Positions 6,138 to 53,007 are shown, numbered from the stretch's first letter. The stretch: 64,000 bases of DNA from Candidatus Omnitrophota bacterium (GCA_003140935.1 PLLJ01000038.1:6858-70857); one strand, 5' to 3'. Numbers and translations are program-made. Notes: generated by a model not told the origin, from the letters alone.

Positions 6138-6262
6138 ACGAGAATGCGGCTATGTTAGGACGGGTGAAAAACTTTGTCGAGTTGTTTATCGAACAGGCAG
6201 GGATTATAAGGCAGCCTTTGGGAATGTCAAAGATTTTGCGGTGCCGTGCGCCTATCTTTGCG

Positions 6263-8290: not shown

Positions 8291-8539
8291 ATCCCTCGAA
8301 ATTATCTTCTAAGGAGTTCGATCTCTTCCAGTGATTGTTTTATAGGATACCGCTATTCTATGATTTCGTCAAAGACGCCTTCGGCAGATCCGCTCTGAGC
8401 CATTCAAATATCGAAAGACCTGACCTTGCGCAACACAAATCCCTATTTAAATACTTCCCAATGCCCCTTCCTCCAGATATACTTTTAGAGGATTCTTTTT
8501 TTACACGGCGTGAACTTTCAAAATCCAAGGAGGATTTTC

Positions 8540-17539: not shown

Positions 17540-17553
17540 GGCGGATCACTCCG

Positions 17554-21861: not shown

Positions 21862-22193
21862 CTTGAATAGCACCTCAACTATGGGATCAAACCATGCCGG
21901 GCATCAACAGACTCGGACGCTCTTTCCCATTCGATCTTTCCCTTGGACACACCCCTCCTTCGCACTCGAAAGAGCCCGGAAGATAGGGCATTGAATGAGC
22001 TTCTCTGAAATTGTAATACATTTCCACGCAATCAAAAATCTTTCTTTTCGTTTCATGACTCTCTAGCGGAAAGTCACCGTGTGGGCCGGGACAGACGGGA
22101 AGAAGGGCCGTAGGGGTACCGGTCCTGAGAGGGAAAAGAAGGCGTGTGAGTCACGGGAGACACTCAAGGAAATTTGCCGGAAAGTGACGCGGA

Positions 22194-34268: not shown

Positions 34269-34730
34269 ATGAATCAACGAGGTTTTACATTGGTTGAAAT
34301 CACGATTACAGCCGCAGTCATTGGACTTTTAGCGGCGATCGCTATTCCCAACTTATTGCGCGCCAGGATCAATGCCAATGAAGGCGCGATCAAAGCGGAT
34401 TTGAAAACGTTCAGTGAGGCGTGCGAAAGTTTCCGCTCTAGTCAAAATCCGCCGGCTTATCCGGCCGATATTGCGACCCTTGTGGTGCCGGCGGTTGGAC
34501 CCGGATATATCGACGCTTCATGGAATAATCCGACGAAGCATGGTTTTAACTTGACCTACGCAGTTGCGACCTACACCTATTCGTTACTAGCGGCTCCTGC
34601 GGTCGCTAACAAAACAGCCATTAATACCTATTGCATTGACCACGGAGGTGTCATTGTTGGGTCCGTGAACGGTGCGGACGCCCCAACAGCAACAGAAACG
34701 GGTTGCGCTGGAGGCACTCCGATTGTCTGA
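34269..34730 (+). CDS. Type IV pilin / pseudopilin-like protein (prepilin-type N-terminal cleavage/methylation domain)
   Basis: MNQRGFTLVEITITAAVIGLLAAIAIPNLLRAR: the GFTLVE prepilin motif plus a hydrophobic alpha1 helix. Confidence 0.75.
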   Translation: MNQRGFTLVEITITAAVIGLLAAIAIPNLLRARINANEGAIKADLKTFSEACESFRSSQNPPAYPADIATLVVPAVGPGYIDASWNNPTKHGFNLTYAVATYTYSLLAAPAVANKTAINTYCIDHGGVIVGSVNGADAPTATETGCAGGTPIV

Positions 34731-36033: not shown

Positions 36034-36867
36034 TTAAAATAGAAAAAACGCGCCTAAAACAAGACATACCAACAAAAATAATATATAGAGACCCATTAAA
36101 AACCAAAACAAATGCACGACCCAGGCGTTTTCTCTATTTGCGCCTTGAGATCCCACGGCGAAACTCGGGACCGGACGATGGACTGCGCCGGTTATTATAT
36201 CGTTCGCACCATACGGAATGTTTTCCGGGGTCCCTCGGGGCCGGGAGGCTGAAGGGTGAGCGGAGCTGAACGACATTTTGATTTTTTTTAGAATATCAAG
36301 TAACGCCACGACTCTGATCCGTTTACGCCGCCCCGGGTCGATCCCGTCTTTGAATCCGGGCGGTTCCGTGTCTTCTTGATCTTCAGTCCGCCATCTGAAT
36401 TTAATTTCAATGGAGTAGCTCATTTCTATGGCATAGATCACGATCCTGACCGCCAGGACGCTCAAGACCCCTGCGAACAAGAATCCCCAGGGGATCTTGT
36501 CGAATAGATCAGGACCGGAAGGCGTTGGGCTCAGGGGGCCCGGCGGCGGAGAGTTCTCCCCGGGCTTCGGCGAAATAACTGCCGTAGCGCCCTGGACCGC
36601 CCGGGGCGGTTCTTTCACGGGCGCGACCCCGAATGTTTTTTCGAGTTCCTTCCATCCTTTTATATATTCTCCGACGCGCACATATTGAAAACTCCGCACA
36701 AAAAATTCGCGCGTGGGTTCTGTCGCGAAATAGGCGAAAACTAAGGACAACCCGAGCATGACCGCGAGAGTGATCCAAAATTGGGGCACTTTGATCAGCG
36801 CCCGGGTGTGCGCCCACCAGCGCGAAAAGAACCAGGCCACTTGCTCCATGATCTTCTTAACATTCAT
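36034..36867 (-). CDS. Membrane protein, uncharacterized (last gene of the giant-protein operon)
   Basis: ATG at 36867 with an AGAGG RBS; 3-4 TM segments, a Pro/Gly-rich cytoplasmic loop and a C-terminal hydrophobic tail. Confidence 0.5.
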   Translation of the reverse strand: MNVKKIMEQVAWFFSRWWAHTRALIKVPQFWITLAVMLGLSLVFAYFATEPTREFFVRSFQYVRVGEYIKGWKELEKTFGVAPVKEPPRAVQGATAVISPKPGENSPPPGPLSPTPSGPDLFDKIPWGFLFAGVLSVLAVRIVIYAIEMSYSIEIKFRWRTEDQEDTEPPGFKDGIDPGRRKRIRVVALLDILKKIKMSFSSAHPSASRPRGTPENIPYGANDIITGAVHRPVPSFAVGSQGANRENAWVVHLFWFLMGLYILFLLVCLVLGAFFLF

Positions 36868-36916
36868 CCCCACAACCTCTTTTTTCTGTTCTCATGTAAA
36901 CTGGACGTTATCCGGC

Positions 36917-37687
36917 TTACCACGGAAAATAATCGGACTGGATGAGGGCTTTCGTCGCTCGGCCCATGCAAGCTTCGCCGGGTTTGGCCTCCAAACAACC
37001 CTTGAATCCTTCGGCTTTGTCCTGTTCGAAGGCTTGCCGGATAAGAAAATATTGATTTTTATTACCGAGTCGATGTAAATTTTGGCCTGATTTCTTCTCC
37101 ATGTATTTTAGGATCTCATCGCAAAAAGCAATCCCCTTCTCCACATCACCTATGTGATCGTAAAGATAAATGATTTTGCTGGTAATAATCGGCGCATAAT
37201 TCCCATCATATTTAATCGGAGGAAGTAATTTTTTGTATTTTTCTCGAAGATATTTGATGTATTCAAAAACGGGTTGTTCCAAGTGTGTGTTTTGAGCTTT
37301 GCAAAGTGCTTCGAGTTCGAGTTTGTCATTGATATATTCTTCTTTTTTTGGATTTTGATGAATGAACCAATCCATTTCATTTAGGGCATCTCGATATTTT
37401 CCCTGCAACCGATGAACATGCCTTATACGTGCTAAAGGCTGACATTTATCTTCTTCTCTTTTGATAAATTGAGGTGTCAAAGCTTCCTGATATTTATTAA
37501 TAGCATCTTCATACAAACCTTGTTCAACAAGTCGGTCGCCTTTGCGTTCAAGTTGAACTCGGCCGCCAATGACTGCAACCGATTGAAAAGATAGATCTTG
37601 TTTATCAACGCCATTAGCTAAAAGACACGAAAGAAAGAGAGTATTTGCTATCAAAAAAAACAAAAGGATAAACATAAACCGTTTCAT
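36917..37687 (-). CDS. TPR-like repeat lipoprotein (paralog A)
   Basis: MKRFMFILLFFLIANTLFLSC lipobox; helical repeat body (GLYEDAINKYQEAL.., YRDALNEMDWFI..). The C-terminal 60 aa are nearly identical to paralog B (..KKSGQNLHR.GNKNQYFLIRQAFEQD..G.KGC.....G..C.GRATKALIQSDYFPW). Confidence 0.6.
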   Translation of the reverse strand: MKRFMFILLFFLIANTLFLSCLLANGVDKQDLSFQSVAVIGGRVQLERKGDRLVEQGLYEDAINKYQEALTPQFIKREEDKCQPLARIRHVHRLQGKYRDALNEMDWFIHQNPKKEEYINDKLELEALCKAQNTHLEQPVFEYIKYLREKYKKLLPPIKYDGNYAPIITSKIIYLYDHIGDVEKGIAFCDEILKYMEKKSGQNLHRLGNKNQYFLIRQAFEQDKAEGFKGCLEAKPGEACMGRATKALIQSDYFPW

Positions 37688-37705
37688 GGATAAACAACCC
37701 AAATT

Positions 37706-37720
37706 TGACGTGTCACGTCA
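37706..37720. promoter_or_regulatory. Perfect 15-bp palindrome TGACGTGTCACGTCA in the promoter region of TPR lipoprotein A
   Basis: Inverted repeat TGACGTG/CACGTCA seen directly in the sequence, ~20 nt upstream of the 37687 start codon; candidate dimeric regulator operator. Confidence 0.25.
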
Positions 37721-37808
37721 TAAGTAACTCTTTGGTTTGTTTCTAGAAAAGCAGAAAGTTTTGTTACTGAATCGCTATTGATAAGCAATTCCGTCACAAA
37801 TGCATTTA

Positions 37809-37892
37809 CCGTTGGCTGATTAAGAGAAGGATCCATCCCGGCGCATATAGCTGGAATGATCCCTCTCTTACTATGATCTTTTTAATATTCAT
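37809..37892 (-). pseudogene. Gene-start remnant (duplicated 5' end of the 36034-36867 membrane-protein gene)
   Basis: The segment 37870-37915 is near-identical to 36845-36890 (ttaaNattcatccccaNaacctNttttttctgttctcatg), including the ATG and RBS, but the frame terminates after 27 codons (MNIKKIIVRGSFQLYAPGWILLLISQR*). Confidence 0.35.
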
Positions 37893-37940
37893 CCCCATAA
37901 CCTTTTTTTCTGTTCTCATGAAAACCGGACGCCATCCGGT

Positions 37941-38678
37941 TTACCACGGGAAATAGTCGGACTGGATGAGAGCTTTCGTTGCTCGACCGACACATCCAGC
38001 CTTCCCCATGCAGCCTTTCTTGCCTTCTTTTTCGTCCTGTTCAAACGCTTGGCGAATAAGAAAATACTGATTTTTATTATCGGGACGATGCAAATTTTGA
38101 CCGGATTTTTTTTCCCAATATGCAAGCGCCTTGTCCATAAAAGTGATGCCGCCCTTATAATTTCCTATTTGGTCATAGCATCGAATAAACGCTGAAGCAA
38201 CGGTTGGGGTTAATCCTGGATTATATTTTGAGGGTGGCAAGATATCTTTGTATTTGCTTTCCATGTACTTGATAAATTCAAGTATTGCCTCGGGAGATTT
38301 CGCGTCTCGTATTTTTATGACTGCTTCCAACTCTGTTTTTTCGTTCTGCCAATTCCATTGCGTAGGGTTCATTTTGACCATAGGGTTCAAGACGTCTAAA
38401 GCTTTTTCATATTCACCTTCCAAGTAATATGTTTCAACAATTAACCCTTTCACTAAAGAATCTTGAAAGGCTTTCATCTTAAGGGCGGGATTATCCGCCT
38501 CTTTGAATTTTGAAAGCGCTTCGTCGTAAAAACCTTGTTTGAGAAATGACTGCCCTTCTCTCTCAAGTTTGTCCTGACGAAAAGCCTTCCATAAGTCATC
38601 ATCCGGAATAGCCTCTGACCAAACGATAGGAACAACATTAAGAAATAAAAAAATAAGCAATACAACTAGTCGCTTCAC
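37941..38678 (-). CDS. TPR-like repeat lipoprotein (paralog B), translationally coupled to the giant gene
   Basis: GTG at 38678 (AGGGAA RBS) gives (M)KRLVVLLIFLFLNVVPIVWS, parallel to paralog A, and overlaps the giant gene stop as GTGA. An alternative TTG at 38699 is possible. TPR-like helical repeats and the shared C-terminal Cys-containing motif are present. Confidence 0.6.
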   Translation of the reverse strand: MKRLVVLLIFLFLNVVPIVWSEAIPDDDLWKAFRQDKLEREGQSFLKQGFYDEALSKFKEADNPALKMKAFQDSLVKGLIVETYYLEGEYEKALDVLNPMVKMNPTQWNWQNEKTELEAVIKIRDAKSPEAILEFIKYMESKYKDILPPSKYNPGLTPTVASAFIRCYDQIGNYKGGITFMDKALAYWEKKSGQNLHRPDNKNQYFLIRQAFEQDEKEGKKGCMGKAGCVGRATKALIQSDYFPW

Positions 38679-41600
38679 GTTTGTTCCCTTGTTTGCCAAC
38701 CCGGCAATCTAATTACCCAGCGATTATTTTCATAGCTAAAACAACCGTCATACTCGAGAGGTGGCCATGTAAGAAAATATGACAGTTCTTCAGTAGAATC
38801 AGCTTTCAACATCAACCGTGTTACAAAATCGCTGACGGTGGTATTCCATCCGGGATCTGAGAGATCATTGCGCTTCATGTAGTAAAGATGTTCGGCCCCC
38901 ACAATTTCAATATTAAAAAGCTGTCGTGTAATTTCTCCATTGGGACCGATGACGCCATCCACAGAAAATCCGAACAAACTATCCCGATATCCAGCAATGC
39001 CTGTCTGGTAAAGAATATCTTTTGTCCCGTAGATATTTACGAATGTCTCGGCTCCACGATTGGCCAGTGTCGGGAAATTCCATGCTGGAACTTTCGGCAA
39101 CACACTGATGATCTCACGCAGCTTGTCTATTGCCAAGCTTGAACCTCTGGATACCAAATCCACAAATTCGTCAGCTAAATGTCCGACATTCAGCACATCG
39201 AGATGCAGCTTCCCTAAAAGGGATTTTAGCATCGCATTCAAAGCGCCCGTAAGCCATCCGAGCACTTTCCCAATACTGCTTTGTGCAAAATCAATGAGAG
39301 AAAGCACCACATTTAATAACTCTGACGATGCTAAACTTAACGTTGCCGCACCAAGACCAACAAGACTTTTGACATTATAAAACTCTGTGGCCAGGCCTTC
39401 AACCAGCGGAAGCAATCCCCCTGAAAATCCCATACCGACGATGGGTCGCACCATGGCTTGTACATTGCTAGCAAGTTGTCGCATTACATCTATAACTAAT
39501 AGCGAATGGAAGCTACCGCTCTGTGATTCAAGAACCCACTTAAGAATATCGATGCCACCGTCGACCACATCATCACCGATAGTTGAGTGATACAGTTCGA
39601 TAGGCAAGGTATCTTCTCGCGGGACAATCGTCTGATTACTTTTTTGGAAAAGATCATATTCCAAATTTGTTATATAAGCCGGCACACCTCCCGAATCGTT
39701 ATCAATCCCGTTAGCCAAAGCATAAAGATCTCCGGAGTCATTCTGCGACGCTCCGTTTCCCGTGTTGACCTGAGTATTAACCTGTTGTAGAAGTCCGTTT
39801 TTGAACACAAAATCCATGGCCATCGGCAAAAACTTGAAAACCATGTTCCAAAAGCTTGGCGAAGAATCAAATTGCTGAGCATCGGGGTGACTACCGTCGA
39901 TAATGATCGTCCCGTCATTGTTCTCTGGTTCAAATTCACCCATGAGTGCTCCATTTTGATAAAGTTTCCCTCTTTTGAGTTGGCCATTACTCACCTCTCC
40001 GGCGAATGCCCAATCGGCTACGACATTACTGATGAAAGTTCCGGACAGAAGGGCCCATTTGCCGGCAGCATCGAAACCAAAAGTGCCGAGTTGCGTAACA
40101 CCATTTTCTTTTTTACCGATAAAATTGCCCGCAAGGTCATAAAAAAGAGATGCTGTGCCGTCGAGTTTCTGTTCCAGGACGCTTTGTCCGTTAAGCGTGG
40201 CGGGGATCTTTGCCGCAGAACCGATGAATCCTCCGATACCCCCGAAACTTAACAATTTCTCTATTGTCTGGCGACTAAAAATGGATGTCACCATCGATTC
40301 CAACGCCCCGGCAAGGCTTTTTTCCTGGATCAAAGAAGCAAAATCGCGTACCCCCTGAAGCGCTGTCTGGATAATGCTGTTCACGGCGTTAAATGGGGTG
40401 AAGACCGCCATTTTGAGAATATCCAGAATGCTGCTGAAGAGACTTCCGCTACCCACAGCGCTCCCTATAGAACTTAAAATATTTCCACTCAGGAGCGAAC
40501 CGAAAATTGGATTACTTGTCGCGCCTCCAAAATCGAATCCTATCGACTTCGCACCGGCGGCAAAACCGTTTTTGATCGCAGCGGAAAGACTGGTGAAATT
40601 GATCGTGTTCGCATGAAATAAACTGTCAAAACCAACACCGACACCGGCTCCAAGTGGCAGAGATATGAGTGAGGTCAGACGCGGGTCGATGCCGAGGGCG
40701 TTTCCCAAGGCCCAGACACCGGAGAGGGTTAATTCTTTCATCAGGTCCGGGGCGACGGTCTTGAAAGCCTCCGGGAGACTTGCCCCGCCTTCCACGGAGC
40801 CGGTGATAATACTCGCAAGAATGCCCAGGTTCGTTGCTATTGGGGGAGGAAGACCGATATGCAGGGCAAGCTCATTAACGCCCGACATGGCAAGATTGGC
40901 CACGGCGGAGTTTAAAAACGTGGTTCCCAATCCAATCTGACCACCGGCAAAGCCAAATACCCCGCCCGTGATGAAACTGCCGATCAGGTTTTTAATCACC
41001 GGGCTTTTGATTCCGATCTTATCCAGAACGATGCCGGTCCCTTTACTCAAGGCGATGCTTAAGACTTGGAAACCGATTACTTGAAGCGGGGCCAACCCGA
41101 GAAATCCACCCGCTGCAGCAAAAAACAAGAAATTCCCAAAATGACCAACCGCTCGCTGAAGCGACTGAAACCCACCATTCAGATCCCCGCTCAAAATGGC
41201 CCCGACAAAGCGAACAGCCTCAAAAAAGAACTGACCGAACGAGACGAGGCTTTTCCCGAGCTCCAACACAAAATCCGTGAGCGACCGGACCACATCGACC
41301 ACAAGATCGACGACATAACGCAATACTGTTTTCACCGCTTCAAAAACAGCCTTCACCACCTGGATCACCGTATCAAAGATCTTCTTCAGGATTCCGAAGA
41401 TGAAACCGAAGAATGCGCCTGTGATCTGCTGCGTCTCCCGGCCCGTCATGATCTTGGCGTTGTTCGAAACTTGCGTCGGCGTTAGCGCGATCCCCTCGCC
41501 CTCTACGGTCACCATCCATATTTTTTCAAATTCCGATCGCGCAAGCGTTTGCGCCTCGCCTGACGGCCCCACGTTTTTTTCGATATAGGTCACCACCTCG

Positions 41601-44600: not shown

Positions 44601-47600
44601 CCGATTGATTCGATCTCCCCGGAAGCGTTTCTCGTATAAATAAGATCCGTGATCTCGCTCTGGGCGTTGATCAATCTTTCCAAAAATCCATTCTCAAATT
44701 CCTGGATCTCTCCGCCTGGAGAGCTCATATAAAACACTTTCCCGTTCTCGATCAAAGCGACCCTTCCGTCTGGAACTGGCAGATGTACTTCGGCCCGCTG
44801 GATCACCATTTGAGTTATATGATTTTCGTCCACGAAAGATTGAACGATCAGGTTTTTGATCACGGTGCCGTCTGTGGTGATGATCTCGACGGGTTTTTCC
44901 CTGCTGTATTCGATCGTGCCGCGGGAATCTACGATCTTCACCAGTTCCTGAAGCAGGAGATCCTCGGCTTGCCCGTCCGAAAGAACGGAATATTTATAAT
45001 ATTCGCCTTTGGCCGTGATCAGTTCTTTCAAGAACCCGTCAGCGCCGTAACGCCTCGAAATGCCTGTCGCTTCTTCCGTGATCAGGGTATCGTCGCCGGA
45101 GTAAGCGTAAGCAAATGAACCGAAAATGCGGCCCGAACGAAAGGTGACCGCTTTTGCGATCCGACCGGAGCCGTCGTAATCATAGGCCGTCTGAAAACCA
45201 CTATTTATATTGTTGATCGAGATGAGTTTGCCTTTCAAGAAACGACGGATCTGATTTTCCACCGTATCTTCAATCACGGTGATCTCGTCCCCTATTTCGT
45301 TGAACTCGTAGGAGTAAAGATAAATAAGCACCCCGGCTTTTCTGATCTCGCGTATTTTTCCGTACTCGTATTTCACTTCGGTCGTTTCGGGATCGATCTG
45401 ATCGGGATCAAAAATCACCCGATTGACATCACTGGACCCGGCAGCATAAGAGTAATGAACGGCCTTCCCTTCCGGAGTGATGATGGTCTCAATGCGATCG
45501 TTTTGATAGATGGCCTGGGATGCGTTTTGAAAAGACACCGTTGCATTTCCGCCATTTGAGGTATATTCGATCTTAAGCGGAACGTCCCCGGACGGTGTAG
45601 TGACCGCGGGCGCAAATTCAAATCCGGCATCCTCCCAGCCTGACACCGATTTTTTCCATGCTCCGTTTACGTCTACCGAAGGATCAAAAGCAGGATCGCT
45701 GTGAACCGCGGAAAGGAGGTTCATATTCCGGTCATAAACAGCCGAGAGAACAGTGTCCGGCGATAGTCGCGCTTGCAGCACTCCGTTCTTGAGACTGGTT
45801 ATTTGAAATTGGCCATCACTCACTTTAGATGAGTTGAAATTTTCAGCAGCAGTAAAATTTTGAGAGCTGCTTTCCAAGGCCGACTTTTTAGACAGAGCTA
45901 CGCCGATTCTTGCTGGAAAACCGGGAGCCGTCTTTTGATTTACGAAAGATGTAGCTGTATTGACCCACGCCACTGGCTGATAATTTGCACTCGAGCAGGC
46001 AAGTGGAGTGTCCGTGATATCCACCGTGGCATTCGCTTTTGGAGAAATCTCGATTGCGTAAATATAGTTCGTGGAAAGATCGGGAAGCGGGATATAGACG
46101 TAAGGGGACCCCGCCACAGACTGATAAGTTTGCTGGTTGAACAGAGAGGAAATGCTTGAAGAGGAGTAGAATTTGACTGTCACGTTTGAACCGGTCATCT
46201 TGATACGGATATAATTTTGGTTCGAGCCATGCAGCGTGGTCGAATTAACTTCACGCCAATAAAGCCCGTTAAAGTCAAAAAACTTACCGGCAGTCCTGAC
46301 CTGCGGCCCCGGAGTTTGAAGACTCCCGTTTACCAGCGGTCTTTCATTAGATCCTATCCCGGCAAGCGCCGAACTCAACACCGCGCTGTCAAATGAAGGT
46401 GAGTAAATAATCGCGTTAACGAGAGCATCCTGAGAATTGGTGGTAATTTGACGAGCTCGAGAACCGTCCGCCCAAGTGATCTGAGTGATCTGGCCGGAGG
46501 GACTGTAGGTGATCCGATCGCCATTCGTTTTGACGATCTGAGTGACATGTCCTCCTGAGTAATAAAGAGTATTTCCGCTTACATCCCGGATCTGGCTTAT
46601 CGCGCCGCCCGCAATCGTCCAGAGTGAACCGTCCTTGGGATCGTACGTCCCGCTCGCAAGATTGCCGTTCGTATCAAGAACAATGCCGGTCAGCATTTCC
46701 CCTGTGGAAAACTTGATCGAAGATAAAGTTTGGCCTGAATAATTAAATTCTTCATTAGCGTTCGTTTTGACTTTGATCAAATTTCCCGAAACATCATAAG
46801 TAAAAATATCGCCGCTCGGATCGACCGCAGAACTCAAAACCCCCGCCGCCGTATAGGTCCTGGAGCCTAAACCGTCCTGAACGGTGACGGTGGTGACATT
46901 TCCCGATCCATCGAACGTATAACTGAAGTTCATCGCTTCAAAAGTCGGAAGAGTGATCTTCTGGAGAAGACCGGCCGCATATTCTTTCTTTGTTCCGTCT
47001 GTTTCAATAATTTGTTTCAGCTCGCCCGCTTCGATAAGACCTTCCGCGCCGCTGGGATAGACCAATACGGCACTGAGAAGCGAGCCGCCGAGATTGAGAA
47101 CAATATTCTTTATTTCGATCGAGTCCGGCCGGACGATCCGGACCGGTTTCCCATTTTGATAATTGATCGTCCCTTCGAGTTGGCTGACGACTTTTACCAA
47201 TATTTGAAGGAAAGTAACAGCCCCGCTCGGATCTGTAATCTGACTAAACGAGTACTCCTCCCCACGGGGCGTGGTCAGTTTCATGAGTTTCCCAGCCGAG
47301 TCGTAATAACGGATCGATCTCACATCGTTCGTGACGACGGTTCCACTAGTCTGATAGTCATAGACAAACCGCGCAGTCCGAACACCGTCTTGATCGATGA
47401 CGGCCTCAATGATCCTCCCCGAACCGTCATAAGTAAATCCTGTCTTGATCAGCACACCGTTGCGGGTTTCTTCCATACCGTTGACACGACCGTTTGCGAC
47501 GAAAACGTGGTTTCCTTTGTCGTTGATAAATTCCGTTAAATCCCCGATAAAAACGGGGTTGCCGTTTGCATCCGTCGACTCATGGTACTGATAGACTCTT

Positions 47601-50600
47601 CCGTCAGCGGTCAGGGATCGGGCTGGTCTGTCATTTTGGATTTCAAGGATCGTTCCGTCGACCGCCTTGATCTGCGTCAGTTGCTGATTCGCGATAACAA
47701 GCTCTCTTCCGTCCGGTAGTTTCACTAAAGCATTTTGCAGATTTCCTGTCGCGTCATAAGCCAGGTCCCGGTATAAGGTCCCGTCCGGTTTTTGAATCGT
47801 GACGACCTTGTCCTGATCGATTGTAAAGACCGTTCCGTCCGCATCTTTCAATTGAGTCAGCTTACCCTGCTCGCCGTAAACTCTTGTAATGCCGTCGCGG
47901 GTTACTGAAAAGCTATGGAATGCGCCGAACAAATCCTTCTCGGGATCATAAAGGGTTTCTTTGCCGGTAGAGTCCACCACGCGGGTCACCGCACCTGAAA
48001 GATCAAATTGATAAATGGTTCCGTCCGGCATCACTGTTTGAGAAAGCGCTAAATCAGATGTGTAATGAAGCGATGCGGGATAAGAAGAATCGGCAGGTAA
48101 GGGATTAATCGATTCGGAGATCCATTCGCTGCCTACTTGCCGGAGATGATAGGGGTATTCGCCTGCGTCCTTTTTGATCTTGGTCAGACGGCCGGAATCG
48201 AAGGAAAACTCGGTGCCGTCTCCTTTTTTCCAGAAGAGGGCTAAACCGTTACTATCCAGATCAACCTGATCATTTCCTTCTTCAATATGCGTGCTTAATA
48301 AATTGCCTGCACTGTTGACCTTATACTGATAATTGGTAATCTTGCCGTTTTTATCTATTTTTGAATGAATGCGTCCCAAGGAATCATAATAAATATGCGT
48401 GCTATCGGGCCGAAATTCCTCCGAGAGCAGGCCTCCCGAAAGCCGGTAAGCAGTTCCATTCTTGGATTTGATCCATCCCCCTTGGATCAATCCTGAAGCG
48501 TCGAAGCTTGGATTAACGAGCGTAGCGTCGGTTCCGTTCAGATTGAAAATGAGTTCGGTCTCTTTTGCCGGGAAAACGGGGTCGGTAATCGCGTTGAGCA
48601 CCACCAGATAATGCGCAGTTACTTTACCGGAAGCGTTGGGCTCCTCGATCGTAAGAAGATTCGCGCCTTCTTGCAAAGCGTAGATCTCTCTTTTTTCCGT
48701 TCCATCCACGGCATAAACCAATTCATAATTCGAGGTTGTAACGATTTGAGGAGAACGAAACTCAAGAACGGGAAAGGTCGTGTTCGTGGAAGGCGTATAG
48801 GTTACGCTATGGGTCAAGGTCGTTATGTTCCCCGCAAGATCGGTTTCTGTAACGGCAAGTGTATTCTCCCCTTCTGTTAGACCAGTAAAGGTCTTTAATT
48901 TCGACGTACCATCTGCGGTATAGCTGATAGTGAACGTATTCGTATTTGTCAAACTGGGTGTCGCGGGATCGATCACGATCGCGGGGGGAACTGTATCCAG
49001 CATCACCTTGGATAGGAGGACTGTCCTTGTATTCATCGCAGCATCCACTTCCGTGATGGTTAACGCGTCATTGTCACCCTCCGCGAGCGTAAAGATCTGT
49101 TGCTTCACAATCCCATCCGCCGTGTAATCCACCACGAGTGCGGCTTGATTCGTCAGGCTAGGAATCTGGCTCGTTACAACGATCACAGGCGGAACCGTAT
49201 CAAGCACCACCTTCGCCAGCGTGATCGTCCGGATATTTCCCGCAGCATCTGCTTCTGTGATTGTCAGGCCGGTATTATCACCTTCAGCAAGTGTGAAAGT
49301 CTTCTGCTTCGCTACGCCGTCCACCGAATAGTCCACGACCAGCACGGGTTGATTCGTCAAGCTTGGCACAGAACTTGTTATTACGACTGCAGGAGGAACT
49401 GTATCAAGTACTACCTTTGGCAGTGTGATCGTCTGCGAATTGCCTGCAGCATCCGATTCCGTAATCGTTAATCCTGTGTTATCGCCTTCCAAAAACGTAA
49501 AGATTTTCTGCTTTACAACATCATCTGCCGTGTAATTCACCACTAACGTCGGACTTTTTGTTAGGGTCGGGACTGTGCTCGTTACCACAATCACTGGCGC
49601 GATCGTATCCAGTACAACTTTCGCTAACGTGACCTTCTGGATATTTCCCGCAGCGTCCACCTCCGTAATTGCCAGTCCGATATTGTCGCCCTCTGCTAAT
49701 GTGAAAGCTTTCTGCTTTACGACACCATCTGCCGTGTAGTCCACAATCAGGGTCGGATTCTTCGTTAAGTTTGGTACCGTGCTCGTCACTATGATCGCGG
49801 GCGGGATCGTATCAAGCGTAATGGCGCTTGAATAGACGAGGCTGGCATTTCCCGCCTTATCGAAAAATTTTGCGTAAACGGTTTTATGGCCATCGTCAGT
49901 GGATAGTGTAAAAGCCTTTGAGGTCGCATAAGTTTCTGCCGCGGTCCATGTCATGTTATCCACTGAAAAACTCATGGCGCCGATCCCGCTTCCAGAATCG
50001 CTTTCCAAAAGGTTTAAAGTCACATTTTCTGAATTCGTATAAGCAGCGCCCGAATTGATATCGATTGTCCCGGTCGGTTTCACTGTATCCAAAAGCACGG
50101 TCACAGAAACAGGGCTAGACCACTTCCCGAATTTATCCATGAATTTGGCATAAACGGTTTTGTTCCCATCACCGGATGCAAAGGTCCAGGACTTTGAGGC
50201 GCTGTAAGTTTGCGCTGCTGTCCAGGTCACGTTATCAGATGAGAAACTCATTTGCGACAAGCCACTCCCCGCATCCGCGGCCGAAAGGTTCAAGGTCACA
50301 GCCGTCTGTTTGATGTACTGCGCGCCACTATTTATAGTCACGATCCCGGTGGGCGGAAGCGTGTCGAGAACAATTGATTTCGAATAAACAGAACTGGCCT
50401 TGCCGGCCTTGTCATAATATTTCACGTACACCGTCTTACGACCATCGCCGGCAGAGAACGTAAAGGTTTGGGTGGTTGCGTAGGTCTCGGCCGTCGTCCA
50501 ATTCGCGTTGTCCTCGGAAAAACTCATTTTATCGATGCCGCTTCCCGCGTCAGTGGCGGAAAGATTTAAAGTCACGGTTGGAGACGATGTGTAAGTTGCG

Positions 50601-52783
50601 CCGTCATTAATGTTGATTGTGCCGGCTGGTTTTGTGGTATCGAGCTGAATGGATTTCGAATAGACCGCGCTTACATTACCAGCCTTGTTGTAATACTTTA
50701 CGTAAACGGTCTTATTGCCGTCGCCGGATGAAAAGGTCCAGGACTTCGTGGCGTTGTAAGTTTGCGCCGTTGTCCAGGTCACATTGTCTGTTGAAAAGCT
50801 CATCTTACCGATTCCGCTGCCAGAATCACCCGCGGAAAGATTCAAGGTCACGCTAGTTGAAACGGTATAAAGCGCACCGGAATTAATATCGATCGATCCG
50901 GCGGGAACCGTCGTATCCAAGATAATGGATTTGCTGTAGACATTACTCGCATTCCCAACCTTGTCGTAATATTTGACGTATACCGTCTGAGGACCGTCAG
51001 CGACGGGAAGCGCAAAAGTTTGGGTAGTTGCATAGGCCTCGGGAGCAGTCCAGTTCACGTTGTCCGTGGAAAAACTCATTTTGTCAATACCGCTTCCTGC
51101 GTCAGCGGCGGAAAGATTTAATGTCACGTTTGGGGACGCCGTGGTGGCAGCACTTGAATTAATATTGAGGGAACCGGTGGGGATCACCGTGTCCCGCTTG
51201 ATCGTAATGCTTGTAGCCAGGCTGACAAGGCCGATCGAATTCTTTGAGGTAATGCTTAACGTGTTGTTCCCCTCGACCGTGAGGTTCTTCGTCGCGGACC
51301 AGGTTGTGGAGCTGTTGGGCGCCACCATCTCCACGCCATTAATCAGGATTGAGGTGTTAGCTTCTTTAGTGCCGGAGATTGTGATCGAAGTTTCTTTCGT
51401 GACCGCGGGAAAGCCCGTAGTCACAACCGGCGCCGAAGGCACGTCCGTATTAAGCCCGTAGCTGCGGATCACCAGGGTGCCCGTGCGAGTGGTGGAAGTG
51501 GTGTTCGCCTGTGTCACTATAAAATTCATGGATTTGATTTTTGCTTTATCAAGCGTCTTTGCAATCGCGGCAACAGGAATCTTCCAAAACCGCTCCGAAT
51601 TATTCGATATCCCCGTCAAGGTGAACGTATCCTTGATATTGTTGATATCAACCACTTCGAAGCTAAGTGACGTGTCGGGGCCTTTTAATCCGAAAACGAG
51701 GTCCTCTAAAAGTGAAATGTCACACGATTCGATCTCTGGCGTCGTCGCATTATCAAAGGAAACCGTGAATCCTGAGCTATCCGTAGTTCCGGGAACACTG
51801 TAGACAAACGAAAATTTCAGGGTTGAAATGCTGTAGGAAAGCTTGGTGGCAACACTGGAGCCGGTTGTAACGTAAGGATACGGGCTACCAGGCAAAGCAG
51901 TGACATTTGCCGAGGTCAGACCTGATGCGTAAGAAAGAGTCCCTCCCATACGAAAGGTTTCGCGTTCGTCTTCTTGAGCGCGGTTATACTCATCCTGCGC
52001 CTCAACAAACTGATTAAGATCCTTTCTCGCCTCAATCTGATCTTGTTCCGTTTTTGAAGCCTCCAAAGCTTCCTTAAACTTTGAAAGAAACTGATCATAG
52101 CCATAGAGATTACTGTTATTCAAAATCCCTTTGTTGTCATACGCATAGACCCCGGTATGCGTGATCACATATTCCTCGCCCGGAGCTGCAATGGCCTCGT
52201 TAATGTCCTCACCGCTCGGACCTTCGTTGGAATAAATGCTGCTATGCGTATGTGAAATCAGGTTAGCTTTCCCGGCCAGTTCCTTCGCTGCAGGTAGAAC
52301 GCCTATCTCATCCGCGCTCCCCGAAGTGAATAAAACGATTTCGCCGTGAAGCACGATAACGCCAGTTTCAAACGGCAACTCGGCAAGTTTCTTCAAATCT
52401 TCGGCTGAAATTTCTTTCACAATCACAGCACTTGCAAATTCAAGCCTTAAAAGATCAAGCGCTTCTTGAAAATCATAACGTTCATATTCATAGTGAGTGG
52501 TGTCCGGAGAAGCGATCGCCTGGGGAACAGTTTCAGCTATGTCTTGAGTCGCGGATGATAAAGGACCTTGCTTATTCGTTAAAAAATCTATTGTTGTGGA
52601 AGGTTGGACGGTCGGGTTGGAGGAATTGGTTGAAACGGAAGTGATAGCCACGACCGGCTGATTCGGATTTGGCTGATATTCCCGCGGAAGGATCTCACCC
52701 GCCCAAACGATCTGGTTCCAGCCAAAGATCAATGTAATGCAAAACGCAATCAATCGAAGAGAGAATGAAAAGGAACGTTTCAT
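38675..52783 (-). CDS. Giant secreted multidomain protein (~4700 aa): signal peptide, N-terminal domain with HxH..SxxD motif, ~6 Ig-like 92-aa repeats, ~6 68-aa beta repeats, two YD/RHS-repeat blocks each followed by a duplicated ~180-aa module, coiled-coil, C39-like peptidase-fold domain (Ser at Cys position), long Gly/Ala-rich hydrophobic (glycine-zipper-like) region, C-terminal ~500-aa domain
   Basis: Single uninterrupted frame of 14.1 kb. ATG at 52783 with an AGGAAA RBS gives MKRSFSFSLRLIAFCITLIFGWNQIVWA (Sec signal); the ORF-track start at 52966 adds a basic non-signal leader. Repeat families are visible at both protein and DNA level: period ~276 nt from 49810-51430 and ~204 nt from 48790-49810. 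YD-type repeats include ..YDSLGRIHSKIDKNGKIT.Y.Y.., ..YDATGNL.., ..YDGSGRI... The duplicated modules are WADGSRARQIT...DITDTPLACSS and RADGSRARQIT...DITDAPLVFSS. The C39-like segment is ..LHFGHSAFFAIQQL.. and ..VHMNGNHYVVVTKIE. The Gly-rich hydrophobic segment is GAFFGFIFGIL...GGFLGLAPLQVIGF...GSFITGGVFGFAGGQIGLG. Confidence 0.85.
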   Translation of the reverse strand: MKRSFSFSLRLIAFCITLIFGWNQIVWAGEILPREYQPNPNQPVVAITSVSTNSSNPTVQPSTTIDFLTNKQGPLSSATQDIAETVPQAIASPDTTHYEYERYDFQEALDLLRLEFASAVIVKEISAEDLKKLAELPFETGVIVLHGEIVLFTSGSADEIGVLPAAKELAGKANLISHTHSSIYSNEGPSGEDINEAIAAPGEEYVITHTGVYAYDNKGILNNSNLYGYDQFLSKFKEALEASKTEQDQIEARKDLNQFVEAQDEYNRAQEDERETFRMGGTLSYASGLTSANVTALPGSPYPYVTTGSSVATKLSYSISTLKFSFVYSVPGTTDSSGFTVSFDNATTPEIESCDISLLEDLVFGLKGPDTSLSFEVVDINNIKDTFTLTGISNNSERFWKIPVAAIAKTLDKAKIKSMNFIVTQANTTSTTRTGTLVIRSYGLNTDVPSAPVVTTGFPAVTKETSITISGTKEANTSILINGVEMVAPNSSTTWSATKNLTVEGNNTLSITSKNSIGLVSLATSITIKRDTVIPTGSLNINSSAATTASPNVTLNLSAADAGSGIDKMSFSTDNVNWTAPEAYATTQTFALPVADGPQTVYVKYYDKVGNASNVYSKSIILDTTVPAGSIDINSGALYTVSTSVTLNLSAGDSGSGIGKMSFSTDNVTWTTAQTYNATKSWTFSSGDGNKTVYVKYYNKAGNVSAVYSKSIQLDTTKPAGTININDGATYTSSPTVTLNLSATDAGSGIDKMSFSEDNANWTTAETYATTQTFTFSAGDGRKTVYVKYYDKAGKASSVYSKSIVLDTLPPTGIVTINSGAQYIKQTAVTLNLSAADAGSGLSQMSFSSDNVTWTAAQTYSASKSWTFASGDGNKTVYAKFMDKFGKWSSPVSVTVLLDTVKPTGTIDINSGAAYTNSENVTLNLLESDSGSGIGAMSFSVDNMTWTAAETYATSKAFTLSTDDGHKTVYAKFFDKAGNASLVYSSAITLDTIPPAIIVTSTVPNLTKNPTLIVDYTADGVVKQKAFTLAEGDNIGLAITEVDAAGNIQKVTLAKVVLDTIAPVIVVTSTVPTLTKSPTLVVNYTADDVVKQKIFTFLEGDNTGLTITESDAAGNSQTITLPKVVLDTVPPAVVITSSVPSLTNQPVLVVDYSVDGVAKQKTFTLAEGDNTGLTITEADAAGNIRTITLAKVVLDTVPPVIVVTSQIPSLTNQAALVVDYTADGIVKQQIFTLAEGDNDALTITEVDAAMNTRTVLLSKVMLDTVPPAIVIDPATPSLTNTNTFTISYTADGTSKLKTFTGLTEGENTLAVTETDLAGNITTLTHSVTYTPSTNTTFPVLEFRSPQIVTTSNYELVYAVDGTEKREIYALQEGANLLTIEEPNASGKVTAHYLVVLNAITDPVFPAKETELIFNLNGTDATLVNPSFDASGLIQGGWIKSKNGTAYRLSGGLLSEEFRPDSTHIYYDSLGRIHSKIDKNGKITNYQYKVNSAGNLLSTHIEEGNDQVDLDSNGLALFWKKGDGTEFSFDSGRLTKIKKDAGEYPYHLRQVGSEWISESINPLPADSSYPASLHYTSDLALSQTVMPDGTIYQFDLSGAVTRVVDSTGKETLYDPEKDLFGAFHSFSVTRDGITRVYGEQGKLTQLKDADGTVFTIDQDKVVTIQKPDGTLYRDLAYDATGNLQNALVKLPDGRELVIANQQLTQIKAVDGTILEIQNDRPARSLTADGRVYQYHESTDANGNPVFIGDLTEFINDKGNHVFVANGRVNGMEETRNGVLIKTGFTYDGSGRIIEAVIDQDGVRTARFVYDYQTSGTVVTNDVRSIRYYDSAGKLMKLTTPRGEEYSFSQITDPSGAVTFLQILVKVVSQLEGTINYQNGKPVRIVRPDSIEIKNIVLNLGGSLLSAVLVYPSGAEGLIEAGELKQIIETDGTKKEYAAGLLQKITLPTFEAMNFSYTFDGSGNVTTVTVQDGLGSRTYTAAGVLSSAVDPSGDIFTYDVSGNLIKVKTNANEEFNYSGQTLSSIKFSTGEMLTGIVLDTNGNLASGTYDPKDGSLWTIAGGAISQIRDVSGNTLYYSGGHVTQIVKTNGDRITYSPSGQITQITWADGSRARQITTNSQDALVNAIIYSPSFDSAVLSSALAGIGSNERPLVNGSLQTPGPQVRTAGKFFDFNGLYWREVNSTTLHGSNQNYIRIKMTGSNVTVKFYSSSSISSLFNQQTYQSVAGSPYVYIPLPDLSTNYIYAIEISPKANATVDITDTPLACSSANYQPVAWVNTATSFVNQKTAPGFPARIGVALSKKSALESSSQNFTAAENFNSSKVSDGQFQITSLKNGVLQARLSPDTVLSAVYDRNMNLLSAVHSDPAFDPSVDVNGAWKKSVSGWEDAGFEFAPAVTTPSGDVPLKIEYTSNGGNATVSFQNASQAIYQNDRIETIITPEGKAVHYSYAAGSSDVNRVIFDPDQIDPETTEVKYEYGKIREIRKAGVLIYLYSYEFNEIGDEITVIEDTVENQIRRFLKGKLISINNINSGFQTAYDYDGSGRIAKAVTFRSGRIFGSFAYAYSGDDTLITEEATGISRRYGADGFLKELITAKGEYYKYSVLSDGQAEDLLLQELVKIVDSRGTIEYSREKPVEIITTDGTVIKNLIVQSFVDENHITQMVIQRAEVHLPVPDGRVALIENGKVFYMSSPGGEIQEFENGFLERLINAQSEITDLIYTRNASGEIESIGVEDKNGQRIYDKNGLLIRAVLPDTTQIDYDANGRLLRLQTPGGEIWEYSSGSLSSVTLTGGGGKIEQIVLDAAGNAQSCIYTKDGIVTTLQNGVVTSKKTLDGTLFFYGPSGKVSEIRKPVGAGCDRLIYDANGVLTAVERADGSRARQITVDSQDNLVNAIIYAPLFNGAVLNAALPGIGSKERPLVNGVLQAPGTQVGTANEFFDFNGDYWRSVNSIPLHGANQNYLRIKMTGSNFTVSFYATNFTNSLFSQQTYQSAVGSPYVYIPLPDLSVKYLYAIEISPKGNVAMDITDAPLVFSSGDMPAIDWTGIAIAFKDQKDRPEVPSIINETLLKKAALETQAAAQFSLRSPDQLDEGQAQTLYNSTLGIVKGAVLDPETIIAAAYRASDSKLLMAARANNTVAHYVDDQIDYVTDLDGNLLIDHEYDASGDLIAVHLIDARKELEEQIIAAQTQVSRQETEALMTLAVERGYAIEAIQNKLNEGLAAINAERERIRQLSSQKVCHTILFFKSCENVQVDVSAPLSELDRMEKDLREQTVGALAGLDTVVAQKKMEIETDAKTAFVELEKQQLVTYREILKQELSPVLFHHYRKILGRDPSEDEINAWIEREIGDDQVSLFSLEKVVEARGLNFTGVWMNFDQLKALSGLSQEGVLAFLKDVGFVMVTDVSGGNVTFVQRSLGNRTQELKIELVPWLDANGVPIPDAGGNIIYIERYVFVPKDDGFGGEKVTVTESEFLSRWLKENSLQGAVFTDQPLAPGSVLITADEAKAISGLFSWDILVEYFKSAFGIDPERANVPKLAGELSGSEEYSARLEQVNAIKAAVRDFLEQYLASDEAERSAKIRSLGLALDEVISVTAPEIETILAWLDSRDLHFGHSAFFAIQQLIEEGNVHATLFDIAREAILIDIMIGVIHPLTTGDLELSLFALNRVAENRNVLLTPAKVTFDELKREVALGKGVLVHMNGNHYVVVTKIELAAQIDENGDPVLDEQGAPVMIEVVTYIEKNVGPSGEAQTLARSEFEKIWMVTVEGEGIALTPTQVSNNAKIMTGRETQQITGAFFGFIFGILKKIFDTVIQVVKAVFEAVKTVLRYVVDLVVDVVRSLTDFVLELGKSLVSFGQFFFEAVRFVGAILSGDLNGGFQSLQRAVGHFGNFLFFAAAGGFLGLAPLQVIGFQVLSIALSKGTGIVLDKIGIKSPVIKNLIGSFITGGVFGFAGGQIGLGTTFLNSAVANLAMSGVNELALHIGLPPPIATNLGILASIITGSVEGGASLPEAFKTVAPDLMKELTLSGVWALGNALGIDPRLTSLISLPLGAGVGVGFDSLFHANTINFTSLSAAIKNGFAAGAKSIGFDFGGATSNPIFGSLLSGNILSSIGSAVGSGSLFSSILDILKMAVFTPFNAVNSIIQTALQGVRDFASLIQEKSLAGALESMVTSIFSRQTIEKLLSFGGIGGFIGSAAKIPATLNGQSVLEQKLDGTASLFYDLAGNFIGKKENGVTQLGTFGFDAAGKWALLSGTFISNVVADWAFAGEVSNGQLKRGKLYQNGALMGEFEPENNDGTIIIDGSHPDAQQFDSSPSFWNMVFKFLPMAMDFVFKNGLLQQVNTQVNTGNGASQNDSGDLYALANGIDNDSGGVPAYITNLEYDLFQKSNQTIVPREDTLPIELYHSTIGDDVVDGGIDILKWVLESQSGSFHSLLVIDVMRQLASNVQAMVRPIVGMGFSGGLLPLVEGLATEFYNVKSLVGLGAATLSLASSELLNVVLSLIDFAQSSIGKVLGWLTGALNAMLKSLLGKLHLDVLNVGHLADEFVDLVSRGSSLAIDKLREIISVLPKVPAWNFPTLANRGAETFVNIYGTKDILYQTGIAGYRDSLFGFSVDGVIGPNGEITRQLFNIEIVGAEHLYYMKRNDLSDPGWNTTVSDFVTRLMLKADSTEELSYFLTWPPLEYDGCFSYENNRWVIRLPGWQTREQT
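43640..44183 (-). repeat. Internal duplicated module copy 2 of the giant gene
   Basis: See copy 1. Each copy follows a YD-repeat block, which suggests an ancestral duplication of a [YD block + module] unit. Confidence 0.7.
45965..46474 (-). repeat. Internal duplicated module copy 1 of the giant gene (paralogous to 43640-44183)
   Basis: Protein WADGSRARQITTNSQDALVNAIIYSPSFDSAVLSSALAGIGSNERPLVNG...YIRIKMTGSNVTVKFY...SPYVYIPLPDLSTNYIYAIEISPK.. versus copy 2 RADGSRARQITVDSQDNLVNAIIYAPLFNGAVLNAALPGIGSKERPLVNG...; DNA similarity is also obvious (e.g. ggagaaatctcgat(c/t)gcgtaaa(g/t)ata). Confidence 0.7.
48790..49810 (-). repeat. Tandem array of ~5-6 short beta-domain repeats (period ~204 nt / 68 aa) inside the giant gene
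   Basis: The markers ctgtatccag / ccgtatcaag / ctgtatcaag / atcgtatcc / atcgtatcaag recur at ~48993, 49197, 49401, 49614, 49808. Protein consensus: VVLDT(V/I)PP.IV(V/I)TS.VP.LT..P.LVVDYTADGV.KQK.FTLAEGDN.GLTITE.DAAGN..T(I/V)TL.K. Confidence 0.7.
49810..51430 (-). repeat. Tandem array of ~6 Ig-like domain repeats (period ~276 nt / 92 aa) inside the giant gene
   Basis: Recurrent DNA motifs (e.g. ..gg(a/t)atcgag.., ..tgaaagaaac..) and the protein consensus LNLSA.D.GSGI.KMSFS.DN..WT....Y...K..T.S.GDG.KTVY.K..DKAGN.S.VYS.SI.LDT..P.G.I.IN.GA.YT. Confidence 0.7.
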
Positions 52784-52824
52784 GACAGATTTCCTATGTT
52801 TCGTTCCACAGATGTTTTTTTCTT

Positions 52825-53007
52825 TCAAGATTTGTTTTTTATTTCTTCCAAAAATCCGACGACGCTTTCGCGGACAACATCGGAACGGGTCCGGTGTTCT
52901 TCTTCGGCCCGGTCCCAAAGCTTTTGGTAATGCGCGGGATCGAGCGTGAAGGTGATCTGGATCCACGTGCCTTCCGTCGCCTGGGGTGCTACCTGAATGT
53001 TCTGCAT
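52825..53007 (-). CDS. Ribbon-helix-helix (CopG/Arc/MetJ-like) DNA-binding protein, immediately upstream of the giant gene
   Basis: ATG at 53007 preceded by a strong AAAGGAGGAAGCC RBS; 60 aa with ..WIQITFTLDPAHYQKLWDRAEEEHRTRSDVVRESVVGFL.., a beta-strand then two helices as in RHH repressors. The stop lies 42 nt upstream of the giant gene ATG. Confidence 0.55.
   Translation of the reverse strand: MQNIQVAPQATEGTWIQITFTLDPAHYQKLWDRAEEEHRTRSDVVRESVVGFLEEIKNKS

Follow-up and report, generated by a model that had tools for sequence, protein, structure and literature searches.

The giant-protein locus

The DNA analysed here, called the window below, is a stretch of 64,000 nucleotides (64 kb) from a Candidatus Omnitrophota bacterium (GCA_003140935.1, PLLJ01000038.1:6858-70857), and positions are counted from its first nucleotide. 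Our subject is a locus at 36034-53007 that encodes a giant protein of 4,702 amino acids (aa) with YD repeats, together with the small genes around it. An earlier note, made from the sequence alone, had described the locus as a tightly coupled set of genes for a ribbon-helix-helix (RHH) regulator, the giant protein, two lipoproteins with tetratricopeptide repeats (TPR), and a polytopic membrane protein, and had proposed that these form a self-contained system for display or delivery of the giant protein. The five open reading frames (ORFs) do all lie on the minus strand of the window, as do the features within them given below, and the order and coupling of the genes were found as described. 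The lipoprotein status of the TPR proteins, the shortness of the gaps, and the evidence for the RHH assignment needed correction.

The giant gene extends over 52783..38675, with the ATG at 52783 as its most plausible start. The description of its product as a huge secreted YD-repeat protein is borne out by the signal peptide, MKRSFSFSLRLIAFCITLIFGWNQIVWA, and by a match to RHS_repeat with E = 8e-23. The gene is preceded by the 60-aa RHH-like ORF (53007..52825), which has an ATG start and a strong ribosome-binding site, AAAGGAGGA, and ends 41 nt before the ATG of the giant gene, not 42 nt as first noted. Thus, the small ORF and its ribosome-binding site are as had been stated, while the RHH assignment itself is weak, with a sub-threshold match at best. 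At the other end, the TGA of the giant gene (38677..38675) and the GTG (38678) of the first TPR gene, TPR1, overlap as GTGA, which agrees with the earlier observation. TPR1 (37941..38678) encodes a 245-aa protein with a signal peptide, no lipobox, and a match to TPR_2. The TPR1–TPR2 spacer is 253 nt and contains a 50-codon ORF (37684..37836), whose own stop overlaps the start of the second TPR gene, TPR2 (36917..37687), as ATGA. The 256-aa product of TPR2 has a signal peptide and, in LFLSC, a possible lipobox; it is a paralogue of TPR1, with 43% identity. The last ORF (36034..36873) begins 43 nt after TPR2, and its 279-aa product has three hydrophobic segments, in keeping with the polytopic membrane protein proposed. 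The gaps are therefore short at three of the four junctions, the exception being the spacer between the TPR genes. A scan for promoters and terminators gave counts not above those in shuffled sequence and was uninformative on transcription units.

The hydrolase domain, its TPR partner and the variable C-termini

The C-terminal domain of the giant protein, called hyd below, covers aa 4336–4702 (~360 aa; 38678..39778). In an alignment with 23 homologues (25–71% identity), the serine of GxSGG, the aspartate of VNxYGTxD, and the histidine of NIEIxGAxH are invariant. These residues correspond to a candidate catalytic triad in the order Ser-Asp-His on a β-α-β core, consisting of S4454 (in GFSGG, the GxSxG nucleophile elbow), D4589, and H4632. 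In the model, the strands and helices follow one another as in an α/β-hydrolase that has a helical lid. Because of the conserved triad and this modelled order, hyd is predicted to be an esterase/lipase-like serine hydrolase, and it looks like an active enzyme. It has no sequence match in Pfam, NCBIfam, PADLOC, or the PDB. Protein searches with the C-terminus of the giant gave three matches for a 1,203-aa query and five for a 373-aa query, with no full-length giants. With the longer query, only the 8,000 candidates with the most common words were scored, and the comparison was built on DNA loci instead. A profile search of 1.84 billion cluster representatives gave just 220 matching clusters, in which hyd is at or near the protein C-terminus; many of the matches are proteins of 66–200 aa that cover only the last ~100 positions of the profile.

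Loci seeded on the TPR gene were obtained from the contigs of TPR homologues and by scanning GTDB genomes with the TPR alignment, and they are identified below by numbers with the prefix L. In every one of the 22 loci with upstream DNA, all from related Omnitrophota, the TPR gene is directly behind hyd. On the long contigs, hyd ends a giant ORF, and the domain order of C39-like, glycine-rich, and hyd is kept; the called giants adjoining TPR genes have 4,357–5,141 aa. Of the 26 cassette junctions listed, 18 have a 4-nt overlap of stop and start codons (ATGA or GTGA), and most of the others have a 1- or 8-nt overlap or a 2–3-nt gap. Downstream of the TPR gene the content is variable, with unrelated lipoproteins, toxin–antitoxin genes, and Y1 transposases.

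The pairwise identities of hyd and TPR across 12 loci are correlated, with r = 0.83 (Mantel p = 2e-4). The C39-like domain, encoded 2 kb upstream within the gene that also encodes hyd, is correlated with neither of them (r = 0.24 for TPR and 0.07 for hyd). The identity of the window giant to its relatives is 20–45% up to aa ~4100 and rises to 52–86%, in both of the subtypes distinguished here as A and B, in the β-rich domain preceding hyd (the 'pre' domain, aa 4181–4335; 39779..40243). Past aa ~4342, the A-type loci (L001, L041) hold 57–83% identity, while the B-type loci (L004, L009) fall to 26–51%. Across this point, the identity to B-type giants goes from ~70–86% down to ~30–40%. The 'pre' domain ends with …NGLLQ, and this end is the junction at which the C-terminal cassette starts. 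The base composition changes as well. The GC content is 0.50–0.55 in the body of the giant gene, 0.45–0.46 in hyd, about 0.39–0.43 in TPR1, and 0.36–0.37 in TPR2, so that hyd, TPR1, the 50-codon ORF, and TPR2 form a low-GC island (36900-40600; 0.36–0.46) between flanks of 0.50–0.56. These comparisons of related loci show hyd and TPR as a dedicated, translationally coupled, co-evolving, and exchangeable pair. The earlier note had suggested a dedicated accessory set and had asked whether all the neighbours co-occur in related genomes. The giant C-terminus and the TPR gene do, in 22 of 22 loci and with conserved overlap and co-divergence; the RHH gene and the membrane protein gene do not.

The TPR proteins form a family of their own. 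TPR1 matches TPR_2 with 28.5 bits (cut-off 27), TPR2 remains below the cut-offs (TPR_2, 16.4 bits; TPR_11, 23.5 bits), and the family profile compared with consensus TPR proteins gives E = 6e-30. The AlphaFold2 (AF2) model of TPR1 is an all-α solenoid of 11 helices with a predicted local distance difference test score (pLDDT) of 92.5. Its fold matches are the TPR domains of KLC, BamD, and MamA, with template modelling (TM) scores of only 0.3–0.46, as for generic TPR solenoids. The lipase foldase Lif is absent from the 50 best PDB fold matches of TPR1, and there is no Pfam or NCBIfam Lif match; sub-threshold NCBIfam matches of the TPR region to BamD/Tgl have E = 0.002–0.01. We found 99 homologues of TPR1, and nearly all of the named ones come from Candidatus Omnitrophota metagenome-assembled genomes. 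Overall identity in the family goes down to 27%, and yet the last 15 residues, GRATKALIQSDYFPW, are almost invariant (37941-37985 in TPR1 and 36917-36961 in TPR2, by the family alignment). The C-terminus fits S-x-[YH]-F-[PS]-W in 96 of 97 full-length members and is exactly SDYFPW in 85 of them, and a literature search gave no prior description of the SDYFPW motif.

The earlier note had called both TPR proteins lipoproteins. TPR1 is not one, because its signal peptide has no cysteine. Only TPR2 has a lipobox-like sequence, LFLSC, which fits a PROSITE-type pattern. A lipobox is found in only 6 of the 97 family members, and lipoprotein status is not a trait of the TPR family.

A second set of loci was collected independently of the TPR gene, by scanning metagenomes with a conserved block of the YD region. 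The probe was built from a subset of closer sequences, and it gave 15 loci. All of these have a common scaffold, which includes the glycine-rich motifs GVSExGLKLxLPPPI and LGRSLGxDPRxT, and they differ thereafter. The hyd domain and TPR gene are carried by L029, L030, L035, and L041. L033 has an N-terminus 67% identical to that of the window giant, and the RHH gene is present; the likeness of its C-terminal domain to hyd is only distant (hhalign probability 88%), and just the N-terminal half of its 287-aa TPR protein matches the TPR family. The C-terminal domains of L031 and L036/37 are unrelated, and behind each of them a different protein with a signal peptide is encoded; in L036, the unrelated domain comes after a retained 'pre' region. 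L040/42, L039/38, and L034 have in common a fourth C-terminal domain, 25–28% identical, together with a co-diverging partner of 118–122 aa that has no signal peptide, which implies a cytoplasmic target. Each alternative class has its own small gene that overlaps the stop of the giant or starts ≤4 nt away. Signal peptides are present in three partner classes of the alternative C-termini and absent from the 118–122-aa class. Thus, at least four C-terminal classes occur on the same scaffold (hyd, the distantly hyd-like domain of L033, and those of L031, L036, and L040/L039/L034). A constant part, presumably for delivery, with a variable tip and a cognate downstream gene is a polymorphic-toxin architecture.

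What is the origin of TPR2? The 50-codon ORF in front of it matches the C-terminal 49 aa of the B-type giants (L004/L024/L029, L009/L035) with 59% identity (E = 1e-15), and it has no match to the giant of the window itself. This ORF is thus an orphan remnant of the C-terminus of a B-type giant. Furthermore, TPR2 is closest to the TPR genes of the B-type loci L004, L007, L008, and L009, with 55–63% identity, and we infer that it is the orphan immunity gene of a B-type cassette. Since the remnant is B-type-like and TPR2 is nearest to B-type TPR, the locus has one complete A-type cassette and, behind it, a B-type cassette that is reduced to a stump but has kept its partner gene intact. A blastn comparison of the two cassettes found one tract of 243 nt (37873..38115) with 79% identity to 36848–37100. 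It spans the 3′ end of TPR and the spacer and reaches ~10 codons into the membrane gene, and the rest of the two cassettes has no detectable DNA similarity. Because the tract includes the beginning of the membrane gene, it is likely to be the result of gene conversion or recombination between the cassettes. A simple recent tandem duplication of the TPR gene was rejected, since only these 243 nt are alike, at 79%, and the remnant comes from the other giant subtype. Second cassettes are also found in L014, L022, and L013, and in L022, there are Y1 transposases between the cassettes. Orphan modules of C-terminal toxin (CT) and immunity genes, sometimes with insertion sequence (IS) elements, are known from Rhs loci and from loci for contact-dependent growth inhibition (CDI) (PMC3150448).

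Y1 (IS200/IS605-type) transposase genes were met repeatedly, either closely downstream of the TPR gene or between cassettes. They were seen in L004/L024 (10893-11483), L008 (11055-11663), L022 (8734-9584 and 11912-12577), L025 (1273-1881), and on the contig of P0018. The Y1 elements may insert at the conserved 3′ end of the TPR gene or at its hairpin, or they may move the cassettes. In L023, a 298-aa ORF (5836-6732), which by eye is tyrosine-recombinase/integrase-like, is directly upstream of a truncated giant of 1,069 aa that starts inside the C39-like domain. It therefore seems that a mobile element has disrupted this locus.

The scaffold domains and the flanking genes

Near the N-terminus, the giant protein has a conserved domain (aa 98–280; 51944..52492) with the motif E…SHxH…GP..D, whose residues are invariant in the alignment with L031, L033, L036, and L043. 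The domain is absent from L030 and L040 and has no Pfam or NCBIfam match; its motif resembles that of JAMM metalloproteases. It is followed by an array of immunoglobulin (Ig)-like repeats at about aa 450–1400 (48584..51436; Big_13, Big_3_2, and DUF7743), which is visible in the translation, and then by two blocks of YD/RHS repeats (43484..48436) that match RHS_repeat (PF05593) with E = 3e-19 and 4e-12. Each YD block is closed by one copy of a duplicated ~200-aa domain (aa 2100–2300, 45884-46486; aa ~2865–3065, about 43589-44191). The two copies are 64% identical, without a family match, and the domain was not found in other loci.

The C39-peptidase-like domain (41414..42106) matches Peptidase_C39 with E = 4e-4 and 20.7 bits, against a cut-off of 22, and a degenerate second copy is located just upstream (aa 3343–3521). 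The eight cysteines of the giant are all outside aa 3560–3790, so that there are none in the C39-like domain, which retains the conserved His in NGNHYVVV and is kept in all related giants. Because it has no cysteine, it is probably not a cysteine protease, and it resembles inactive C39-like domains. The next region (aa 3790–4180, ~400 aa; 40244..41413) is glycine-rich and hydrophobic and contains the two motifs given above. It has no family match in Pfam or NCBIfam and is conserved in giants of every C-terminal class; we infer a possible role in membrane insertion or translocation.

The RHH-like protein has no Pfam match. Its match to an NCBIfam RelB-like antitoxin is sub-threshold (E = 0.03, 14 bits; cut-off 50), and the strand-helix-helix pattern was recognised only by eye. 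Apart from the window, only two loci, both of close relatives, have a homologue upstream of the giant: L033, with 76% identity, and L006, with 49%. In five of the eight giant loci with visible upstream DNA (L030, L031, L036/37, L040/42, and L043), no RHH homologue is present upstream, and other small genes are at this position. The RHH-like protein was therefore rejected as a conserved component, being present only in close relatives, and its probable role is that of a lineage-specific regulator. No family matches the membrane protein, and no homologue is located downstream of TPR in any other locus. The GC content of its gene, 0.52–0.56, is like that of the backbone and unlike that of the cassette block. 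With no homologue in other loci and a backbone-like GC content, it was likewise rejected as a component and is best regarded as a neighbour.

In L006, the locus has collapsed to 6468-8040, where the RHH gene and the first ~110 codons of the giant are followed by the hydrolase domain in a shifted frame and then by TPR. Either much of the interior has been deleted or the assembly is in error here. Upstream of several giants, there is a divergent gene for an outer-membrane-protein-like product of ~470–490 aa with a signal peptide (L006, 4378-6245; L030, 296-2179; L040/L042, 652-2492), for which the label FadL-like is a by-eye reading only. A conserved protein of 64–85 aa (…DKKLATEVRxFLxNLFxLFD…) is encoded upstream of the same giants. 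Neither of these genes is present in the window.

As stated in the earlier note, no VgrG, PAAR, TpsB, or usher genes were found among the window ORFs scanned, which are a subset of all ORFs. Parts of a type VI secretion system (T6SS; VgrG, PAAR, or adaptor) were found neither in these ORFs nor in the gene tables of the related loci. The only secretion-related genes seen in the window are T2SSE, a type II/IV secretion ATPase (8510-9700, plus strand), and a pilin-like N_methyl protein (34269-34730, plus strand). Elsewhere in the window, six tandem genes for proteins of ~450–520 aa (12581-21873, minus strand) look like an array of paralogues; the four that were scanned are all B12-binding radical-SAM enzymes. 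A family-2 glycosyltransferase gene at 11554-12564 precedes this array.

Interpretation and comparison with known systems

On balance, we think it likely that this is a polymorphic toxin locus with cognate and orphan periplasmic immunity proteins. The giant, a Sec-exported protein, would be a polymorphic toxin that has the Ig-like and YD repeats as its stalk and is aided by the glycine-rich domain in reaching or crossing a target membrane. The hyd domain would then act as an esterase/lipase toxin on the envelope of another cell, which may be prey, a host, or a competitor. TPR1 would bind and block hyd in the periplasm of the producer, and TPR2 would be kept as orphan immunity against relatives with the B-type toxin. 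The location signal of the partner would in each case match the site of action of the toxin. Such features are known for the Tli immunity proteins of lipases, which carry Sec or lipoprotein signals, and the Tli5b immunity proteins of PldB have Sel1-like repeats and tandem paralogues (PMC13133936). What is unusual is the putative delivery scaffold, which is without the DPxGL core motif and without any type V secretion system (T5SS) or T6SS genes seen. An immunity-like protein had been one of the options in the earlier note, and the evidence on TPR1 favours it. The same note had held that the arrangement goes beyond canonical toxin/immunity loci. This is contradicted by the variable C-termini with their own partners, the orphan remnant with TPR2, and the low-GC, mosaic cassette block, since these are classic signs of polymorphic toxins.

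Several observations weigh against a toxin. The AlphaFold model of hyd, from a 9-sequence alignment, is of low confidence, with a pLDDT of 55 and a predicted TM score (pTM) of 0.60, and the enzyme could serve in feeding or surface remodelling, not killing. The near-invariant tail of the TPR proteins is atypical of immunity proteins, with their fast evolution, and a function in chaperoning or sorting would agree with it as well. The alternative C-terminal domains and their partners have no Pfam match and match no known toxin/immunity family. The DPxGL hallmark of Rhs is absent, with no DP.G[LWIVM] motif anywhere in the 4,702 aa of the giant, and no secretion or delivery machinery for a Sec-exported protein of this size was identified in the 64-kb window or the related loci.

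Could TPR1 be primarily a helper of hyd and not an inhibitor? The lipase-specific foldase, Lif, is encoded directly behind lipA in Pseudomonas and Burkholderia, and TPR1 might be a dedicated folding/export helper of this kind or an immunity protein that activates its toxin. The conserved translational coupling and the all-α repeat structure fit such a role, and a 15-residue tail that is near-invariant across the phylum fits a conserved mechanistic contact. There is also a precedent in the Tli of E. cloacae, which activates its Tle phospholipase besides neutralising it (bioRxiv 10.1101/2023.03.28.534661). However, intact TPR genes are found beside decayed hyd fragments, as for TPR2 in the window and in L014, and a foldase without its enzyme should be lost. 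The sister giants with other C-termini have unrelated small proteins at the same coupled position, and the lack of a signal peptide in one partner class speaks for compartment-matched immunity and not for an export chaperone. Furthermore, TPR1 matches only generic TPR proteins and has no sequence or fold match to Lif. Because TPR persists beside decayed hyd and the partners elsewhere are unrelated, one of them cytoplasmic, we favour immunity, and consider a primary helper function unlikely, though it is the most serious of the alternatives. The giant might instead be no weapon but an adhesin on the cell surface, tipped with an enzyme, that serves to attach to a host cell or to degrade polymers or lipids as food, and TPR1 a latency factor or anchor for this enzyme. 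It has a signal peptide and long arrays of Ig-like and YD repeats, an esterase can serve nutrition, and giant Omnitrophota proteins have been read as cell-surface degraders in a predatory or episymbiotic life (bioRxiv 10.1101/2023.11.21.568195). The swapping of unrelated C-termini with their own partners on one scaffold, the orphan cassettes, and the low-GC mosaic are instead marks of conflict systems and not of housekeeping enzymes, and the partner class without a signal peptide implies a cytoplasmic target, so that we regard the adhesin as improbable.

The proposal of the earlier note, that the RHH protein, the giant, two TPR lipoproteins, and the membrane protein form one machine for display or delivery, with the small proteins as tether or export apparatus, is considerably less probable than either of these. 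The single strand, the short gaps at three of four junctions, and the weak BamD/Tgl matches of the TPR region in NCBIfam speak for it. Nevertheless, these matches cover only generic TPR repeats and are far below the cut-offs, TPR1 is without a lipobox, like all but six of the 97 family members, the membrane protein is absent from all other loci, and RHH is missing from five of the eight giant loci with visible upstream DNA. Because the neighbourhood is not conserved, the five-gene machine is largely refuted.

The polymorphic toxin proposed here can be compared with several known systems. It resembles Rhs and WapA in the YD/RHS repeats, the variable C-terminal toxin domain, and the small gene directly downstream (RhsI/WapI), as well as in the low-GC cassette and in the orphan fragments of C-termini that follow the main gene together with immunity genes. 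The export of WapA of Bacillus starts with a Sec signal peptide and does not use a T6SS, and the giant likewise begins with a Sec signal peptide. In Rhs proteins, PxxxxDPxGL or DPxGL marks the end of the core and the autoproteolytic boundary before the toxin. The giant lacks this core-end motif, for which reason strict membership in Rhs was rejected, and VgrG and PAAR are missing from the window ORFs scanned. Moreover, the giant exceeds typical Rhs proteins in length by a factor of three to four, and its YD repeats are in the middle of the protein, with the C39-like and ~400-aa glycine-rich domains between repeats and toxin. The ~1,200 aa from the last YD block to the toxin argue against enclosure in a closed β-cocoon of the Rhs type.

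CdiA proteins are also very long, exported, and filamentous, with a conserved junction, an exchangeable toxin, and a cognate gene immediately downstream, and their domain logic of stalk, membrane-translocation region, and toxin is similar to that proposed for the giant. CDI loci have orphan CT and immunity pairs, sometimes interrupted by IS elements (PMC3150448), as there are Y1 transposases behind TPR here. However, the giant has no two-partner secretion (TPS) domain, CdiB/TpsB partner, FHA repeats, or VENN motif, and the junction in the giants is …NGLLQ after the β-rich domain, or it directly follows the glycine-rich domain. Because there is neither a TPS domain nor a TpsB partner, this is not a CDI system.

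The likeness to Tle/Tli pairs lies in an α/β-hydrolase with a GxSxG nucleophile and in a partner with a Sec or lipoprotein signal, which implies the periplasm. The hyd and TPR proteins have no sequence similarity to any Tle or Tli family, and hyd is the C-terminus of a Sec-exported giant, not a cargo of the T6SS. We know of no report of the invariant C-terminal SDYFPW for Tli proteins. PldB/Tli5b is similar in that the immunity protein is an α-helical repeat protein with tandem paralogues (PMC13133936). With MARTX and the large clostridial toxins, there is an analogy of layout only, with repeats, a protease-like domain, a glycine-rich or hydrophobic region presumed to enter the target membrane, and an enzymatic effector in one polypeptide. 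There is no sequence relationship, the protease-like domain of the giant has no cysteine, its effector is at the extreme C-terminus with an immunity partner, and it has a Sec signal for export in place of type I secretion.

The giant proteins described from Omnitrophota, such as the 'Archaeovorins', are from the same phylum and are also very long and exported. C39-like domains and RHS-like β-helical regions are noted in the two papers, and the published proteins differ in having about 10,000 to over 100,000 aa and many enzyme domains. Searching both texts by term gave no mention of a downstream TPR partner, and exchangeable C-terminal cassettes and orphan modules were not searched for (bioRxiv 10.1101/2023.11.21.568195, 10.64898/2026.06.07.730766).

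The logic of the locus is thus that of known polymorphic toxins. What appears to be new is the scaffold, together with the families of the hydrolase toxin and of the TPR immunity protein. We speculate, as a tentative idea that we hold to be rather doubtful at present, that Omnitrophota have a toxin delivery platform of their own, apart from the T5SS and T6SS, in which the cysteine-less C39-like domain and the glycine-rich hydrophobic domain of a Sec-exported protein of ~4–7 thousand residues bring exchangeable C-terminal toxins into the cells of prey or hosts. The most common of these toxins would be a new esterase/lipase family, restrained by the TPR protein, whose invariant C-terminal SDYFPW tail would plug the catalytic pocket.

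The present comparison adds a scaffold that appears to use none of the known contact-dependent secretion routes, a predicted hydrolase toxin family, a predicted TPR immunity family with an invariant tail, and several predicted toxin/immunity pairs that had no annotation. For genome annotation, many short 'hypothetical' ORFs beside giant genes would be explained as orphan fragments. Omnitrophota are widespread, mostly uncultivated, and very small bacteria, thought to be predators or parasites of other microbes, whose mode of attack is largely unknown. The type of locus described here provides a concrete candidate for a weapon of these bacteria, in which a modular giant protein would carry interchangeable toxic tips, each with an antidote to match.

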